The translations under genes and the position numbers were made by a program. Below the pieces are notes generated by a model. That model was not told where the DNA came from and searched no databases. It was given only the letters and a program-made list of their open reading frames with translations. From an uncultured Acidobacteriota bacterium (GTDB lineage Bacteria > Acidobacteriota > UBA6911): DNA of 64,000 nt. The stretch covers positions 416,001 to 480,000 of the forward strand of contig CAWEJX010000001.1 in NCBI GenBank assembly GCA_963809485.1. Direction: 5' to 3'. This document shows, in pieces, positions 23,485-57,414 of this stretch. Positions within the stretch are counted from its first letter, which is position 1. Each line of letters starts with the position of its first letter.

Positions 23485-25346
23485 ATGAGGCGGCTTGCGT
23501 CGGTTGAGGAGTTGCGCTCGCAGCGCTTTTGTTCATTCATGGCCCGTGTCCATGGATTTGCCCGTATCCAGGGCCTCCGTGTCCACACCGATTGCTCGAA
23601 AGCCTGGGAGTATCCATGGACCTGGCAATACCTCCGAGAACTTCCCTTCGAAGGACTTAGGATACTCGATATCGGCTCCGGCCTCTCCCCGATGCCGTGG
23701 TTTTTCGCGTCTCTTGGCGCTAGCGTAACCATGGTTGAAGCAGATCCTGCCTATGAGGCCAGATGGCGCGCGCTGAGAGAAGGAAACGCGTTCAATGTGA
23801 ATTGGCATGTCGCTAACGGGCCGGAACTTCCAGTAGCGTCGGATACCTTCGATCTGGCAACCTCCTACTCGGTGATTGAACATATCGGCGACAGAGAAAC
23901 AGCCATCGAGGAGGCAATCCGGATCCTCAAGCCGGGCGGACTTCTCTGCTTCACTTTCGATATCTGCGAGCCATCGCGCGGAATGAGCCTCCCGGAGTTG
24001 AACGGGCAGGCATTTGACATGGAATCTTTCGACCGTCTGGTCTGGCGCAGGGCCGACCTCGAACCTCTTTATCCGCCAGCGCAGTGGAATGACAAAGATA
24101 TTGAAGGATTCCTGGAATGGCATCGCGCCATTGCGGCGCCGCAATAATTATGTTGTGGGAGCAGCCGTCCTGCGAAAGAAGAAAATTCCCATTCGATCCA
24201 AAACAAAGGGAACGATCCGCGTACATCAGCTTGATACTGGACTGGGCGCCGGCAATACGGGAGACGACGCGATGTTCCTTGCCGCAGTCGAGCATTTGCC
24301 GGCCGATTTCAATTTAACTACGGAAGTTCATGCGCTATCAAGAACCAGGACGCTGCCGCAGGGCGTGCGCTACATTTAATGGACGACAAACCTGCAGTGG
24401 AGGAAAGCATCCGTCAAGCTCAATTGGTTCTAATAATGGGCGATACGCCCATCATGGACGCGTGGGGATTGGAATGGCCTTTGCTGTCAAACGCACCGAA
24501 GCTCGAGATTTTGCCACCATCTGGGCAAGCCGGTTCACGCGGTCGGAATCGGAGTCGACCGGCTCGAAACGGAAGGCGAGCGCATTTTTCGTGAATTTTA
24601 TTCTCCCATCGCCTCCTGGTCGGTGCGCTCGGAATCTTGCAGACGCGCATTGCAGGAGATGGGAGTCGCCGATGATAGAATCCACGTCGGGGCGGACTGG
24701 GCCTGGCTCCTGAACTGTCCAATCGACAAGCAGTGGGCAGCGGAGTGGCTGAGCCTGTGCGGCGTCGCAGACGGGAAGACTGAATATCGGCGTCAATGTG
24801 GTCAACGAAATGTGGAGTGGCAATCGGGAAAGGAAAAAAGCCTGTGCATCTTTGCTTGACCGGCTGATTGAGAAACACGACGCACAGGAATCTTTTCTTC
24901 TGTAACGAGTCGCGGCCCGGAGCATATTTCGACCGGGCGGCCTCCGATGGAGGTACGGCGGCTATGAATCATCCGTCCTTTCTTCTGCCTGATCGGTTTT
25001 ACATGCCCTCCGAGACAATCTCACTAATATGCCGTCCATGCAGCTGACGATCAGCCAGCGTTATCATTTCACGCTTTTTTCAGTCCTTGCCGGTGTCTAT
25101 CCGATTTCGATTCAGCGAGGCCAGAAAATGCGTTCGCTAAATGAAGATCTTGGCCTTCCCTTCGTTGGAAACATGGAATACCTTGAAGCAGCCGGCATCG
25201 AGCATGAAATCGAGGCCCTGCTGGTTAGTGCCGAATCAAAGCTTGAGCCCTTGCGATTGCGCAAACAACAGCTCAAAAAGCGTGCCGCCGGCAATTTTTC
25301 GCTGGTAGGATATCCGCATGCGGAAGTTTTGCCGGAAAGATTCTGA
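23485..25346 (+). pseudogene. SAM methyltransferase - polysaccharide pyruvyltransferase-like fusion broken by multiple frameshifts
   Basis: ILDIGSG and SVIEH methyltransferase motifs; GNTGDDAM, VGIGVD, SVRSESC, GADWAW and ISQRYH fragments in successive frames. Confidence 0.7.
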
Positions 25347-25760
25347 GGAATCGGGATTTGGCAATGACACAGGTCCAGGGTATTTAGCGGCCACGGTGAA
25401 TGCTCCCGTGGTTACAGTCAGCAGGATCGGAAACTGCCCGGCGTGCGTTCGCGGAGGCAAAAACCCCATTGCATTCTCCCGCGAAGCGCCCTGGATCGGC
25501 TATGCATAGGCGGGGCTTGGGATTTTGATGCGAAAATAGGAAGTGTACCGCTGGCGACGCAGAAGGCTTTGGACCGAATGATCGAATTACCTGAGGTTAC
25601 TACGGGGTGAATTTGCTGGATATGCAATTTGCGGCTAAAAGCCGTTTTGTGTTCCCAGGAATCAGGCTTAAAAGCATAATCCGGTGGATCTCCTGCAGAA
25701 TAAAAAACCCACGTTGCTCGAAGCTTAAGTTAACATTATGGCTTTGCGCGGAAGATCAAG

Positions 25761-26663
25761 ATGCGGGAATTGAAGCATCCCGATGTAACGATTGTGACTC
25801 CCTCCTATAACCAGGGAGCCTTTATAGAGGAGACGATTCTCAGTGTCCTGAGCCAGGAGGGTGTGAGCATCGAATATAGGGTCATGGATGGAGGATCCAC
25901 AGACGGCACAATAAGGATTCTGGAGAAATACGCTGGCCGCCTGGAGTACGTTTCGGAAAAAGACAAAGGGCAGGCCGACGGTATAAACAAGGGGCTACAA
26001 AACCTGAGCGGCAGGATATTCGCCTATATTAATTCGGACGATATCTATCTTCCCGGCGCAGTAGCCAAGGCGGTTCATTATCTCGATGCTCATCCCGAAA
26101 TGGCTATAGTCTACGGCGAGGGATATCATATGGACGCTCAGGGCAGGTTTCTGGAGCGCTATGGCACCGAACCATTTGATTTCCGCCGACTTGCGGAAAT
26201 CTGCTTTATATGTCAGCCAACGGTATTCATTCGCCGCGAAATGCTTTCTGCCATCGGCTATTTTGATGCGAGTCTTCAATACTGCCTGGATTACGACTAC
26301 TGGATCCGTGTCGGCAAGCGTTTCTCTATCGGCTACATCCCCGAGTATCTGGCAGCTTCGAGACTTCATTCCGGCACCAAGACGCTCACCAAACGCGTCG
26401 AGGTCCACGAAGAATCCCTGCTCACGATCAAGCATCATTACGGGCACGTGCCTGGGCGCTGGATAGCAGCCTGGGCGCATGCTTGGCTGGGGAGGCGCCT
26501 CTCCAGAGAAGGCTGGGTAAAGGAGCGGGCCTTCTGGGTTCTCGTGCGTCTCGTTTTCCTCGCGAAATACATCTCCGTCAACCGAAATGTGCCGATCGAC
26601 GATTTCATCAAGCAACTGAGGCGCAAAAACTTTTGGCATTCAGACACCACTGGAGCGGCATAA
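25761..26663 (+). CDS. Glycosyltransferase family 2
   Basis: IVTPSYNQ, DGGSTD, INSDD, DYDYWIR motifs. Confidence 0.92.
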   Translation: MRELKHPDVTIVTPSYNQGAFIEETILSVLSQEGVSIEYRVMDGGSTDGTIRILEKYAGRLEYVSEKDKGQADGINKGLQNLSGRIFAYINSDDIYLPGAVAKAVHYLDAHPEMAIVYGEGYHMDAQGRFLERYGTEPFDFRRLAEICFICQPTVFIRREMLSAIGYFDASLQYCLDYDYWIRVGKRFSIGYIPEYLAASRLHSGTKTLTKRVEVHEESLLTIKHHYGHVPGRWIAAWAHAWLGRRLSREGWVKERAFWVLVRLVFLAKYISVNRNVPIDDFIKQLRRKNFWHSDTTGAA

Positions 26664-26978
26664 AACAACCGGTGAGGATCGCCCTGGATGTCAGTTTGGT
26701 AATTCGATAGTTAAGGGGATGTCACCTTTCATTTATTGTTGCCGGCGGACGATGATATTATTTTCACCGGCGCCGGCTTCCGGCCGGCTTCAAAACTGAT
26801 GTCATGGTGAGGCTGACATTCACGGCTCGACCATGCCAATAAGCATTGGGTATGGGTGGCGCGAATCGCTTCCGAAAAACATGAATGTGACTTTGGCTAA
26901 TGATCCGCACAGTCTATCGAGGCCAGATACGGTAAAGGCTGATATCAATGAATGATTGTCCCGTGGTGGTATCGCGCA

Positions 26979-27376
26979 GTCAGGTACCTCCGGCAAAGCC
27001 GGAGGCTTGATAGATTTGAACCGCTCAAAGCGGTTGGAGGAGTTACCCCGGTCTTGAACGCTGACTTACGCGGGCAAAAGCCGATGAGGCGCTTCCGATC
27101 CCCGCAGCGGCCAGCGCTCCGCGCTGGACAGTTTTCTGCGGCGGCACTGTGGCAAGCGCCGTGCGGCAAGGAGATGAAGGGTATGAGAAACCGGGCGTTT
27201 GCCACAGTGCCGCCGCAGAAAACTCCATCGGAAGCGCCTCATCGGCTTTTGCTCGCCGACCCTCGACGAACAAATCGGCGTTTGTCAGCGCTTTTGTCAG
27301 CGTTTCTCAGCGTTTCAAATTACGGAACTGTCAAACTCTTTGAGTCCCCCGGCAGAGCCGAGGGTTTACCAATGGA
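26979..27376 (-). mobile_element. Non-autonomous IS200/IS605-type element with fold-back interior, copy 1
   Basis: Subterminal hairpins CCTCCGGC-AAA-GCCGGAGG and CCCCGGC-AGA-GCCGAGG; four copies in window; no target duplication; no transposase. Confidence 0.8.
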
Positions 27377-27412
27377 ATTACTGATGAATGCAGCATTTCT
27401 GATAGTGAATGA

Positions 27413-29065
27413 ATGACTATTAAAGATAAAGAAGCAATTGATTTCGCAAAATGCCGCAACGTGCTGATTCCCCGCCTGGATACTTTTGGCGACATTGTGT
27501 TGCTGCAGGGATTTATTGCTGCGCTGCTCGAATATCTTCCTGAAGCCCGGATTACACTCCTGGTACGCCAGGGATACGAGCAACTGGCTTCCATGTTTCC
27601 CGGGCGTTTGCTTTGGAAAACCACACGGATTCATCCATACCGGAAGCCGTACGATTATCAGGAGATAAAATCATTTCTGGAGGAACTGAAAAAGGAGTCT
27701 TACGACCTTCTGTTGACCACAACCTATAACCGCACCTGGCCGGACGACTTGCTGGCCCTGGCATTAGCGGATTCACAGCGGGTGGCCATCGGCGACCCGC
27801 AACCCATTTCTCCCGATGCAGCGGAGGTTTGGGCAAAGTATGGCGGTATCCCCAATGAAGGACACTATGATTTATGGGTTCCCGTGGAAGGAAGGATCCA
27901 CGAGACAGAAAAATATCAGTCATTGTGGAGTAAAATCGCCCCTGGAAGCAAATCTATCCCGCAGCCGCATTTGATTATTCCGCAAGAGGAAAGCAACCGG
28001 GCAAGCGATGTAATTGCCCGTGCCGGCCTTAAAGAAGGAGAATTTGTTTTCTGTTTCCCGGCCGGCGTCGCCAATATCAAAACCAAGGTATGGCCGGCGA
28101 ACAACTACGCCGAGGTCATCTATCGCCTCGAAAAAAATCATTCCTTGCGATCCCTTGTCGCGGGTCATGTGTCGGAAAAAAGCATAGTCGATGAAGTGGT
28201 TGGACTTGCCAGAAAGCTTGGGGCGAATGCGGCTGGATGGTTGGGCACCGACGGCAACATTTCTCTTGCTGGGGCATTGGCGGATAAATCCCTCTTTTAT
28301 TTTGGAAATGATACGAGTTTGATGCATATGGCCGCAGCACTGAAGAAACCCGTGGTAGCCATATTCGGAGGTGGAACATGGCCAAGGTTTTTGCCGGCAG
28401 CAAAAATCAGTCGTGTATTCACAACGTCAATGCCGTGCTTTTATTGCATGTGGAATTGCATTTTTGACCGGCCATTTTGCATCAATTGGGTAAAGGTGGA
28501 TATTGTCGAGAAAGAAATGGCCGTTGTATTGGAGGAAATACACACCGGGAACGGAACTGGCAAAGTATTGCAGCAGCATCCCGATAGTCTGCAGTCGATA
28601 CAAATTCTTGAAAAGTCCGTGGAATGCCTCATGGCGGAAAAAGATAAGCTAAAAATCAGTGAAGCGGACCGGGCGGCGCGGCTGGAGGTGATCCACGGGC
28701 AGCAGAATGCCTTGGACAGTCTGCGCCAGCAGCTGGAGGCGTCGGAAGCCGATCGGGCGGCGCGGCTGGAGGTGATCCACGGGCAGCAGAATGCCTTGGA
28801 CAGTCTGCGCCAGCAGCTGGAGGCATCGGAAGCCGATCGAGCAGCGCGGCTGGAGGTGATCCACGGGCAGCAGGAAGCGCTGGACAGCTTGCGCCAGCAG
28901 CTGGAAACCTCCGAAGCAGACCGAGCGGCACGGCTGGAGGCGATCCGGGAGAAGGATGAACAACTGATAAAAGCCAGCGATGAATACAAGCGACTCCGTG
29001 AAGGCTATTCCTATAGGATCGGCCATTTGATTTTATGGCCGCTAAAAAAAATATTGAATAAGTAG
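27413..29065 (+). CDS. Glycosyltransferase family 9 with C-terminal repeat coiled coil
   Basis: RLDTFGDIVL, KVWP, GNDTSLMHMAAA motifs; C-terminal YSYRIG..WPLKK. Confidence 0.85.
   Translation: MTIKDKEAIDFAKCRNVLIPRLDTFGDIVLLQGFIAALLEYLPEARITLLVRQGYEQLASMFPGRLLWKTTRIHPYRKPYDYQEIKSFLEELKKESYDLLLTTTYNRTWPDDLLALALADSQRVAIGDPQPISPDAAEVWAKYGGIPNEGHYDLWVPVEGRIHETEKYQSLWSKIAPGSKSIPQPHLIIPQEESNRASDVIARAGLKEGEFVFCFPAGVANIKTKVWPANNYAEVIYRLEKNHSLRSLVAGHVSEKSIVDEVVGLARKLGANAAGWLGTDGNISLAGALADKSLFYFGNDTSLMHMAAALKKPVVAIFGGGTWPRFLPAAKISRVFTTSMPCFYCMWNCIFDRPFCINWVKVDIVEKEMAVVLEEIHTGNGTGKVLQQHPDSLQSIQILEKSVECLMAEKDKLKISEADRAARLEVIHGQQNALDSLRQQLEASEADRAARLEVIHGQQNALDSLRQQLEASEADRAARLEVIHGQQEALDSLRQQLETSEADRAARLEAIREKDEQLIKASDEYKRLREGYSYRIGHLILWPLKKILNK
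28658..28945 (+). repeat. 84-bp coding tandem repeat, about 3.4 units
   Basis: Units start at 28658, 28742, 28826 and 28910; encode SEADRAARLEVIHGQQxALDSLRQQLEx. Confidence 0.95.
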
Positions 29066-29150
29066 CAAATATATCGCCGCTGCATTGGAGTCTACCTCGG
29101 TATTATTTGGCAGAGCGGAAATCGCGATATGATAATAAAAAGGATCCCCT

Positions 29151-30266
29151 ATGTACTGTTTCACCTCCATTATCAATAATTACCTCCCCAAGGCACGGAT
29201 CCTCGCCACTTCCCTGAAAATTTTTCATCCGGATTGGAAGTTTGTCCTGGTTGTTTGCGAACCATTGCATGAATCCGTCCAATTGCAGCATGAACCCTTC
29301 GATCAAATCATTACTCTTTCAGACCTGGACATTCCGGATTTGGAAAGCTGGATATTCAAGCATAACGTGATGGAAATCTGCACCGCCGTGAAAGGTCCGG
29401 CGGCTGCCCATATTGCGGCAAATACCAAAACCGACAAGCTGATTTACTTTGATCCGGACATAGCAATCTTCGACAGCCTGAGCAATATTTCGTCGCAGCT
29501 GGACATCTCTCCCATCATTTTGACACCCCATCAAACCAGACCAGAAATCAGTCTAAGCGATGTCTACAGCAATGAAGTCTGCTTCCTGAAACATGGCTCG
29601 TTTAACCTGGGATTTTTTGCCGTCCGCTGCGAAGGACAAGGCTGGGACTTTCTCAACTGGTATCGCGACCGCTTATTGGAATTTTGTTATATAGATCCCA
29701 ATCAGGGATTGTACACCGATCAGCGCTGGTGCGATCTTGCTCCTATATTATTCGACCAGCTTCATATCGATCGCGACCCCTCTTGCAACGTAGCCCGTTG
29801 GAACGTGTCCCAGCGCCGTCTGTCCAAACATGACTCCCAGAAATATCTGGTGGATGGAACCCTGCTGAAGTTCTTCCATTTTAGCGGCTTCGATTCAGGA
29901 CAAGGCGAGAAAGAAATAGGCAGATATGCAACGAAAGACGACTGTGTATTCGAGCTTTGGGATTGGTATGGGAAACAACTGGAGAAGCACGGACAGTCCG
30001 GCTTCGAAAAAATGGAATGGAAATATGATCGGTTTGACGATGGAAGGGAAATTACCCGGGAGATGAGATTATGCTATCGGGAAAGGAAGGATCTCCAGGA
30101 AGCCTTCCCCTTTCCATTCGGCAGCAACAGTAAATATGGATCCTTTAGCGACTGGTATGCCAAAAACGGGAACGCAATCTACGACGGTCCCGGGTGGCGG
30201 CAGAATGTTCATCGGTTTGTTGACAGATTCATCGATGGGATCAACAACATGCGCCGGCGCAACTGA
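29151..30266 (+). CDS. Putative glycosyltransferase (GT-A fold)
   Basis: NYLPKA, CTAVK, YFDPD, LTPH, DQRW, FHFSG motifs. Confidence 0.75.
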   Translation: MYCFTSIINNYLPKARILATSLKIFHPDWKFVLVVCEPLHESVQLQHEPFDQIITLSDLDIPDLESWIFKHNVMEICTAVKGPAAAHIAANTKTDKLIYFDPDIAIFDSLSNISSQLDISPIILTPHQTRPEISLSDVYSNEVCFLKHGSFNLGFFAVRCEGQGWDFLNWYRDRLLEFCYIDPNQGLYTDQRWCDLAPILFDQLHIDRDPSCNVARWNVSQRRLSKHDSQKYLVDGTLLKFFHFSGFDSGQGEKEIGRYATKDDCVFELWDWYGKQLEKHGQSGFEKMEWKYDRFDDGREITREMRLCYRERKDLQEAFPFPFGSNSKYGSFSDWYAKNGNAIYDGPGWRQNVHRFVDRFIDGINNMRRRN

Positions 30267-35910: not shown

Positions 35911-36308
35911 GTCAGGTACCTTCGGCAAAGCCGGAGGCTTGAAAGATTTAAACCGCTCAAAGCGGTTGGACTAGTTACGCCGGTCTTGAACGCTGACTTA
36001 TGCGGGCAAAAGCCGATGAGGCGCTTCCGATCCCAGCAGGGGCCAGCGCTCCGCGCTGGACAGTTTTCTGCGGCGGCACCGTGGAAAGCGCCGTGCGGCA
36101 AGGAGATAAAGGGTATGAGAAACCGGGCGCTTGCCACAGTGCCGCCGCCGAAAACTCCATCGGAAGCGCCTCATCGGCTTTTGCTCGCCGACTTTCGCCG
36201 AACAAATCGACGTTTGTCAGCGCTTTTATCAGCGTTTCTCAGCGTTTCAAAATACGGAGCTGTCAAACTCTTTGAGTCCCCCGGCAGAGCCGGGGGTTTA
36301 CCAATGTA
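35911..36308 (-). mobile_element. Non-autonomous IS200/IS605-type element, copy 2
   Basis: Colinear with copy 1, starting GTCA and followed by ATTA. Confidence 0.8.
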
Positions 36309-36505
36309 ATTAGTGCCCATCTTCCATATCAGCTGGGCATATTGGCGTGAAGGCGCCTGACCTTGTCTTCAATCATGAAAGGTTTTCAGATGGACCGGCC
36401 GCCCGTTTTGCAGAATCGACCGGGCCCTGGGAGTTTTGATAAAAAATCGTTTCGATACGTGTGAGGCCTCATCAACAAAACCGGCCTTCCTCAATCTTAA
36501 ACGGC

Positions 36506-53667: not shown

Positions 53668-54064
53668 GTTAATTACCTCCGGCAAAGCCGAAGGCTTGCA
53701 GTTGTGAACCGCTCAAAGCGGTTGGACGAGTTCCACTGGCATTAACCGCTGATATACGCGGGCAAAAGCCGATGAGGCGCTTCCGATCCCCGAAGGGACC
53801 AGCGCTCCGCGCTGGAACGTTTTCTGCGGCGGCACTGTGGCAAACGCCCTGATTTTCAAAACCTCCATCTCCTTGCCGCGCGGCGCTTGCCACAGTGCCG
53901 CCGCAGAAAACTTCATCGGAAGTGCCTCATCGGCTTTTGCTCGCTGACCCTCGCCGAATCAATCGACATTTATCAGCGCTTTTGTCAGCGTATGTCAGCG
54001 TTTCAAAATCCGGAGCTTTCAAACTCCATGAGTCGCCCGGCAGAGCCGGGGGTTTACCAATTGA
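53668..54064 (-). mobile_element. Non-autonomous IS200/IS605-type element, copy 3 (divergent, inverted loop)
   Basis: Same ends and arms as the other copies; starts GTTA, followed by ATCA. Confidence 0.8.
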
Positions 54065-56873: not shown

Positions 56874-57271
56874 GTCAGGTACCTCCGGCAAAACCGTAGG
56901 CTTGAAAGATTTGAACCGCTCAAGGCGGTTGGAGGAGTTACGCCGGTCTTGAACGCTGACTTACGCGGGCAAAAGCCGATGAGGCGCTTCCGATCCCCGC
57001 AGGGGCCAGCGCTCCGCGCCGGACAGTTTTCTGCGGCGGCACTGTGGCAAGCGCCGTGCGGCAAGGAGATGAAGGGTATGAGAAACCAGGCGTTTGCCAC
57101 AGTGCCGCCGCAGAAAACTCCATCGGAAGCGCCTCATCGGCTTTTGCTCGCCGACCCTCGCCGAACAAATCGGCGTTTGTCAGCGCTTTTATCAGCGTTT
57201 CTCAGCGTTTCAAAATACGGAGCTGTCAAACTCTTTGAGTCTCTCGGCAGAGCCGGGAGTTTACCACGGTA
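56874..57271 (-). mobile_element. Non-autonomous IS200/IS605-type element, copy 4
   Basis: Colinear with copy 1; GTCA start, followed by ATTA. Confidence 0.8.
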
Positions 57272-57414
57272 ATTAAAATCCGAAGACGCTATGGGTACCC
57301 AATCCGGACATGGTCCGTTTGTCAGCGCCTTTATCTGCGCTTGCCGGCGGCACCGGACCCCGAAACGGTCCAACCCTATGAGGCTCCGGGCAATGCACGG
57401 GATTTGCCGATGAA

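Follow-up and report, generated by a model that had tools for sequence, protein, structure and literature searches.

The window analysed here, a stretch of 64,000 nucleotides from an uncultured Acidobacteriota bacterium, contains at positions 26978–27375 a repeat of 398 nt whose middle part, 27054–27318, folds back on itself. The repeat, which reads on the minus strand, is a whole non-autonomous element of the IS200 type. It is delimited by its repeat boundaries (126 blastn matches of at least 150 nt out of 503, together with an alignment of 90 copies) and by an empty site; in the 90-copy alignment, conservation drops sharply outside positions 26978 and 27380. Counted by its two non-palindromic ends, the element occupies 332 loci in the 6.0-Mb genome: both ends are present at 259 of them, the window-right end stands alone at 49 and the window-left end alone at 24. 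Arithmetic from the locus and length counts puts the total at about 1.4% of the genome. This count replaces an earlier one made with long blastn pieces, which gave 286 places, 4 of them artefacts of a reversed loop. Four minus-strand places at which only the inner hairpin seemed to be present were considered as stand-alone hairpins and proved to be full copies with the loop reversed.

The window itself holds four copies by the end-based count, where the first-pass annotation of this DNA had listed three. They all lie on the minus strand: copy 1 (26978–27380 with the flanking AATTA), copy 2 (35911–36312), copy 3 (53674–54061), which is more diverged and has its loop reversed, and copy 4 (56874–57275); copies 2 and 4 were also recovered by blastn. 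As for coding capacity, the two longest ORFs of the element (154 aa and 86 aa) gave a single chance-level match in Pfam at E up to 0.1. The 154-aa ORF (26952–27416, plus strand) spans the whole element without matching any Pfam family. It is almost certainly a spurious frame created by the repeat, and gene callers may annotate it about a hundred times in this genome.

The fold-back core

The core is a branched palindrome at 27070–27256, recognized from fold energies and arm pairing. Its arms are those already described in the first-pass annotation, and a repeat finder recovers both: the outer arm 27070–27099 pairs with 27227–27256 over 30 nt (97%), and the inner arm 27130–27160 pairs with 27194–27224 over 31 nt (97%), enclosing a loop at 27161–27193. 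Side hairpins lie at about 27100–27110 and at 27111–27127, the latter, also noted before, being present in the minimum-energy fold. At the base, the repeat finder joins 27057–27072 with 27289–27304 in a stem of 16 nt (81%). Three tandem 12-nt units containing TCAGCG (27278–27311) are seen by the repeat finder and in the fold, and the basal pairing proposed for these repeats was found as well: one unit pairs with an inverted GAACGCTGAC at 27056–27065 and extends the base of the stem.

The fold of about 265 nt that had been put forward for 27054–27318 is real, and lies far beyond chance expectation. Treated as RNA, the plus strand reaches −166.3 kcal/mol, compared with −101.4 ± 5.1 for 200 shuffled sequences (z = −12.8), none of which folds as well; with DNA parameters, the minus strand gives z = −15.0, again with 0/200 shuffles as good. 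For the consensus of the whole element the values are −234.7 kcal/mol (plus) and −233.2 kcal/mol (minus), so the two strands fold equally well.

Ends and polarity of the element

Each end of the element carries a GC-rich subterminal hairpin. The two hairpins point the same way, and neither end is an inverted copy of the other. Homology to the ends of IS200 elements identifies the true left end (LE) at 27320–27375 on the minus strand, with its hairpin at 27346–27364, and the true right end (RE) at 26978–27037 on the same strand, with hairpins at 26987–27005 and 27019–27035. Over 45 nt, the reverse complement of the window-right end can be aligned with the sequence that directly precedes an IS200-type tnpA on another contig of this genome (G000:C6), and the hairpin stem carries paired changes between the two sequences; judged by eye, the closest LE is that of the IS200-type copy G007:C580, a genome outside the G000:C6 alignment. 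The two small RE hairpins are also found 3′ of tnpA in the IS200 copies G007:C580 and G002:C286, and in G030:C107 the 5′ half of tnpA is retained between ends of the same kinds.

PATEs (palindrome-associated transposable elements) are presented, in the accessible parts of two articles, as ORF-less derivatives of IS200/IS605-family insertion sequences (PMC7290912, PMC10055086). The present element has subterminal hairpins on one strand (26987–27005 and 27346–27364), no terminal inverted repeats, and ends homologous to those of elements bearing a Y1 (PF01797) tnpA (G000:C6, G007:C580, and G002:C286). It is a tnpA-less, PATE-like derivative of an IS200-type insertion sequence, and the fold does sit between ends of the IS200/IS605 type, in keeping with its first description as cargo between IS ends. 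The polarity then assigned was, on the other hand, inverted. The end marked by GTCA, taken at first for the start, is the tip of the RE at 26978: the homology to tnpA-bearing copies, the empty site and the replication bias (see below) identify it as RE and the window minus strand as the active one. The window minus strand is the top strand, on which the LE starts at 27375 and the RE terminus reads …CCTGACT.

Target site and replication-strand bias

The empty site comes from a single contig of depth 3.5, assembled from a DNA run (X1) of a related strain. It matches the window up to 26972, carries five other letters in place of 26973–26977 and resumes at 27376, with the element absent and no duplication. 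Since AATTA (27376–27380) is retained in this contig, it belongs to the flank and not to the element; on the top strand it is the target pentanucleotide TAATT, and the element lies directly 3′ of it with no target duplication, as judged from this one empty site. Beside the 90 aligned copies, the AATTA positions are 78–99% conserved, one of them being T/C, while the opposite flank is random. TAATT is also present 5′ of the LE in the IS200 copies G000:C6, G006:C43, G002:C286, and G030:C107. A second empty site was sought at orthologous loci, and the right flank (27381–28000) matched nothing in five genomes of the genus.

The orientation of the copies is strongly biased, with 77+/4− on contig C20, 0+/23− on C6 and 22+/1− on C1; on contigs other than C7 it is 90–100% one-sided. 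On C7, the copies are 17+/2− to the left of dnaA and 2+/12− to its right, and the switch falls between 440 and 483 kb. The sole DnaA-domain gene of the genome is located at G000:C7:454563–455039 and the cumulative GC-skew minimum of C7 at about 415 kb (the GC skew of this genome is weak); this region is probably the replication origin. Gene orientation fails to explain the bias of the copies, because long-ORF gene proxies on C20 show no strand bias (413+/391−). The top, active strand of the element sits on the lagging-strand template. According to the available text of PMC5027513, IS608, ISDra2 and other members of the family excise from and insert into this same template. The strand bias of the element also serves to locate the origin of replication.

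Candidate transposases

Members of the IS200/IS605 family possess a Y1/HUH transposase and move by ‘peel-and-paste’ single-strand transposition. The present element would presumably be moved in trans by a Y1 TnpA. There are four PF01797 matches in the genome, none of them flanked by the ends of the element: the IS200-type copy at G000:C6, which has an in-frame TAG at the conserved PKY, a fragment, a RAYT-like gene with its own REPs, and a distant protein of 279 aa. These Y1 genes were considered as the cognate transposase and rejected, since none lies between element ends, and an intact cognate tnpA was not found in the assembly. In G006, a near-identical IS200 copy (G006:C43) has a 2-nt deletion in tnpA shortly before the C-terminal YI..Q motif, which we take to hold the catalytic tyrosine of IS200-type TnpA, and the tnpA of G007:C580 has TGA at a conserved W. 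One inactivating lesion is thus present in each of the IS200-type tnpA genes examined (G000:C6 at about 298380–299000, G006:C43, and G007:C580). The G000 and G006 copies are otherwise 98–99% identical, and their TnpA is only 46% identical to that of the G007 copy. Related IS200 copies with open tnpA frames of 153–164 aa are found in G015:C5, G045:C174 and G004:C291.

At G000:C15:225627–225971, a 150-aa Y1 transposase gene is found inside a REP-like array (GGCCGCGTAGCGGCC…, CCCGTCGCGTGAGCGACGG). This gene resembles a RAYT accompanied by REPs of its own kind. The sequence of these REP units is unrelated to that of the element, and no element match lies within 6 kb of the gene. REP units of the same type also occur downstream of the IS200 copy in G006:C43.

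Flips and deletions of the palindrome

Among the 90 long copies, the loop between the inner arms is in forward orientation in 59, reversed in 26 and unclear in 5. Mapped on a tree of the ends, loop orientation requires 6 changes, compared with 22.6 in 300 shuffles (minimum 18). The loop flip is therefore inherited, and so few changes mean that few flips happened and that both versions then spread. The two arm mismatches of copy 1 had been reported as G-T on the plus strand, which is correct for both, but the general plus-strand G-U bias drawn from them fails across the 90 long copies. At the outer mismatch, 86 of these copies have G-T; at the inner one, 55 have G-T, 26 A-C, 4 G-C, 4 A-T and 1 a gap; at the remaining pairs, with these two mismatches excluded, there are 29 plus-strand G-T cells vs 58 A-C cells. 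The 26 A-C mismatches equal in number the 26 reversed loops, which suggests, as a comparison of totals and not of individual copies, that the mismatch flips with the loop. In a set made of 29 of the best 30 loci plus one G006 copy, 0/96 pairs changed on both sides, the same as in shuffles, a count that is uninformative because the aligned copies are 97% identical. The rates of G>A and C>T changes show small, inconsistent differences between regions of the element.

Deletion is frequent. Two-ended copies of up to 460 nt (n = 256) comprise 102 long (at least 350 nt) and 154 short ones. The short copies form a deletion series of the long form, with junctions at the palindrome centre or at short direct repeats (about 20 copies at a GCCGA repeat, about 28 at a CCGAyCCyCGC repeat, and others), and in about 10 of them the palindrome has collapsed to the outer arms; deletion forms of 228 nt and 242 nt are among those seen. 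End polymorphisms are common to all length classes in similar proportions. On the tree of ends, the long or short state changes 59 times in 169 copies, vs 56.1 in shuffles; with all 256 copies there are 71 changes vs 80.4, and 5 of 300 shuffles are as low, which amounts to slight clustering. As these values are near the shuffle level, the deletions are recurrent and barely inherited, and the tree does carry signal, given that the loop flip is well resolved on it. Median end divergence is 9.0% in short copies vs 5.8% in long ones. Rare variants occur at rates of 0.007–0.012 in the arms, compared with 0.012–0.017 elsewhere in the element, and the copies are young, with a median of 10 differences from the consensus outside the loop.

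From these patterns we infer that copies insert in the long form and afterwards lose the hairpin where they stand, short copies rarely leaving descendants. The case for spread by long copies only draws on a tree built from about 205 nt of the ends, and amplification of a few master copies would produce the same long/short pattern. The palindrome behaves as DNA: it flips, it suffers deletions, and it displays no strand-specific wobble.

Relatives in the genus and class

Forty-one genomes were compared, namely that of the window (G000), 24 of the genus and 16 of the class. Matches to the element are present in 15 of them, with full-length copies only in G000 and G006; the latter are about 93% identical and their palindrome is nearly unchanged. 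Most of the matches listed for G002, G005, G022 and G024 cover the RE hairpins, and G002 and G007 also match in other parts. The RE part alone matches in other genomes of the genus.

A sister family is found in G005 and G024. Its LE and RE are built like those of the window element, and it carries a long hairpin of unrelated sequence, the arms of which consist of ATCGGN-like hexamers. This hairpin lies just upstream of the RE hairpins in 4/4 complete elements examined, and its 3′ arm is visible in one partial element of G022. The sister family has 53 matches in G005, 45 in G024 and 22 in G022. The autonomous IS200 copy of G002 has no such long hairpin at that place. In a literature search, the accessible portions of the sources gave no description of IS200-derived MITEs with a long internal hairpin.

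Part of the core recurs elsewhere: in G002 and G015, another family of short repeats also contains the outer-arm module with GTAAGTCAGCGT, and three base pairs of the module have both partners replaced there. IS200-type ends were not matched in this family, for which one copy was searched (G002:C54:14659–14819). The recurrence in a different repeat family suggests that the cargo was captured, and the three paired changes are compatible with selection that maintains pairing as well as with conversion between the arms of a DNA palindrome. G015 contains about 22 matches of this repeat family, many copies of which are without the 5′ arm.

Possible roles of the palindrome

Two alternatives had been offered for the fold, an RNA and a single-stranded DNA structure linked to transposition, and the evidence favours the second. 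As the best explanation overall we lean, by a slight preference, to the palindromic core of a tnpA-less IS200-type derivative functioning as a cis-acting fold of single-stranded DNA. The narrower claim, that the core acts in cis on the single-stranded top strand, we infer with a confidence not quite reaching even. When the lagging-strand template is exposed, the core of about 190 nt would snap into a branched hairpin, shortening the span between LE and RE. Such a hairpin may bring LE and RE together, may stall or slow lagging-strand synthesis, or may offer TnpA branched or duplex DNA to land on. Hairpin-bearing copies would then excise and spread, and hairpin-less copies would be dead ends. 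As far as the accessible text of PMC5027513 goes, IS608 TnpA binds branched DNA whatever the target sequence, and insertions are drawn to stalled forks. Against this mechanism stand the small number of hairpin-bearing families, only two (n = 2), and the fact that the element can be shortened just as effectively by plain deletion, which leaves no obvious benefit to a fold.

A tentative generalization, which we consider conceivable rather than probable, is that a long internal hairpin is the cis-acting enhancer that tnpA-less IS200 derivatives need in order to spread, independently acquired in at least two families of the genus. The palindrome is unstable, yet it is kept in the spreading lineage, and the corresponding place in the sister family is occupied by another hairpin. 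Should such a hairpin indeed be needed in cis, this would be a new design rule for mobilizing minimal single-strand transposons, and it would be relevant to the question of why hairpins are central to REPINs and PATEs.

The main rival of a cis-acting fold is a palindrome that plays no role at all, hitch-hiking DNA in a master copy that was recently amplified and whose core is now decaying; the palindrome could have come from one of the palindromic repeats of the genus, by insertion into an IS200 remnant or by recombination with it. The captured look of the cargo, whose outer-arm module is shared with the G002/G015 family, agrees with this explanation, as do the loss of the palindrome from 154 of the 256 two-ended copies, the youth of the copies and the lack of covariation (0/96 pairs, among copies 97% alike). 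What makes it nonetheless rather unlikely is that the sister family, which is also abundant, has independently a long hairpin of unrelated sequence at this position, that short forms hardly form lineages although deletion is frequent and the tree resolves the loop flip, and that variation is lower in the arms than elsewhere in the element.

Tests of an RNA function

A structured RNA was the other alternative: the core would be transcribed as a stand-alone guide of the omega-RNA type, a long dsRNA, an sRNA or an antisense regulator. The fold is as good in RNA as in DNA. PATEs often encode omega-RNAs used in trans, according to the part of PMC10055086 that was available. The metatranscriptome is compatible with transcription at first sight, since contigs of the runs X18 and X20, together with X19 (probably DNA), cover the element at depths of 5–95 without its immediate flanks; one X20 contig lies further out, at 27930–28100. 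Coverage in the RNA runs is, however, higher at the ends than in the centre, with the same shape as in the DNA run X1, and the shares of sampled words in the runs are small (0.04–0.25). A 330-copy repeat would show through DNA carry-over where single-copy flanks would not, and the coverage therefore says nothing either way.

The remaining evidence is adverse. In Rfam 15 (E up to 1; 25000–30000, both strands), which includes HEARO, no family came near its threshold, and the only match was the plant miRNA MIR1861 with 41.3 bits vs a gathering score of 88. The TnpB domains PF07282 and PF01385 gave 0 matches each in six-frame searches of the genome, which is 95.7% complete, while control searches found each of them in 8 of 14 genomes; PF14239 (RRXRR) likewise gave 0 matches, a weak result because its control was empty in 14 genomes as well. 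No sigma-70-like promoter was found in 26600–27700. Loop and mismatch orientation are free to flip, and private mismatches disfavour plus-strand wobble (29 vs 58, as above). The strand that folds better is the top one in two of the four sister hairpins, the bottom one in one and neither in the fourth, so the preference is inconsistent over the five hairpins compared.

The geometry of the locus is also at odds with a guide RNA. In IscB loci, the RNA starts at the transposon end and the upstream flank serves as guide. This HEARO arrangement is not found at the present locus, where the GTCA end is the RE and any RNA transcribed in the plus sense would be complementary to the top strand. With the bias absent, the loop flipping, and no Rfam match, promoter or TnpB, the stand-alone guide-like RNA or long dsRNA of the first-pass annotation is unsupported; the evidence points to a DNA hairpin and not to an RNA gene, and we judge an RNA function improbable.

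Least credible, to the point of being very improbable, is a host-level, REP-like role as terminators, mRNA 3′-end stabilizers, or nucleoid-protein or gyrase sites: the copies are mostly intergenic (midpoint inside a long-ORF proxy in 18/215), are found somewhat more frequently behind a gene that reads into them in the window-plus sense (132 vs 83), and one terminator-like site lies at 27111–27127, but their orientation follows replication and not genes, one such site does not exceed the shuffle level (1.6), most copies have lost the hairpin, and the family is confined to two species among the 41 genomes, with full-length copies only in G000 and G006.

Comparison with known systems

With its hairpin-bearing LE and RE, its multiple copies and its lack of a transposase gene, the element resembles PATEs, and it is a new, very abundant representative of this known kind, derived from IS200. 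Unlike PATEs from tnpB-bearing elements, it derives from a tnpA-only, IS200-type sequence; unlike the omega-RNA-encoding PATEs described in the accessible text of PMC10055086, it has a branched palindrome of about 190 nt in place of tnpA. It further departs from known PATEs in its very high copy number (332 loci) and in having no intact cognate tnpA in the assembly. The element agrees with the IS200/IS605 family in inserting next to a short fixed motif that is not duplicated and in its lagging-strand orientation. The target of ISDra2 is TTGAT. That of IS608 is TTAC in the available part of PMC5027513, and that of the present element is TAATT. The same text describes for IS608 and ISDra2 features that are shared here, namely top-strand hairpins, a fixed target of 4–5 nt 5′ of the LE, no duplication and coupling to the lagging strand. 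The element differs from both in the spacing between cleavage site and hairpin, and it has neither tnpA nor tnpB inside.

REPINs, REP doublets that are moved by RAYT Y1 transposases, are likewise non-autonomous, high-copy, hairpin-forming and tied to Y1/HUH enzymes. The hairpin-forming doublet is argued to be their replicative unit and the singlets defunct remnants, in the part of PMC3116915 that was accessible, and this doublet/singlet logic, which parallels the long and short copies, is the closest conceptual parallel. A REPIN is one symmetric hairpin of two inverted REPs, unlike the present element, which has asymmetric direct ends and an internal hairpin; the REPs flanking the C15 RAYT are, besides, unrelated to it. 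With HEARO and TnpB omega-RNAs, finally, it shares a structured stretch adjoining an IS200/IS605-type end, and stand-alone copies of omega-RNAs are known, according to the accessible text of PMC10055086; it differs in having no Rfam match, no TnpB or RRXRR match in the genome, a polarity opposite to that assumed for a guide, and no strand-specific signature. A candidate new structured RNA is in this way replaced by the annotation of a very abundant IS200-derived element with a TAATT target, a defined polarity and a strand bias.

Rearranged copies

Paired isolated ends were also searched for an autonomous copy, and the only pair within 4 kb was rejected as such because it encloses ordinary genes. 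At that place, G000:C15:51991–55172, two partial ends in the same orientation surround 3 kb that encode a TPR protein and a sugar kinase, and these ends probably stem from two separate, decayed copies instead of a composite element. At G006:C20:33400–34350, an insert of about 250 nt of other sequence separates the RE tip from the remainder of the element, and this insert, which starts with a second RE-like hairpin, may represent a nested or rearranged copy.
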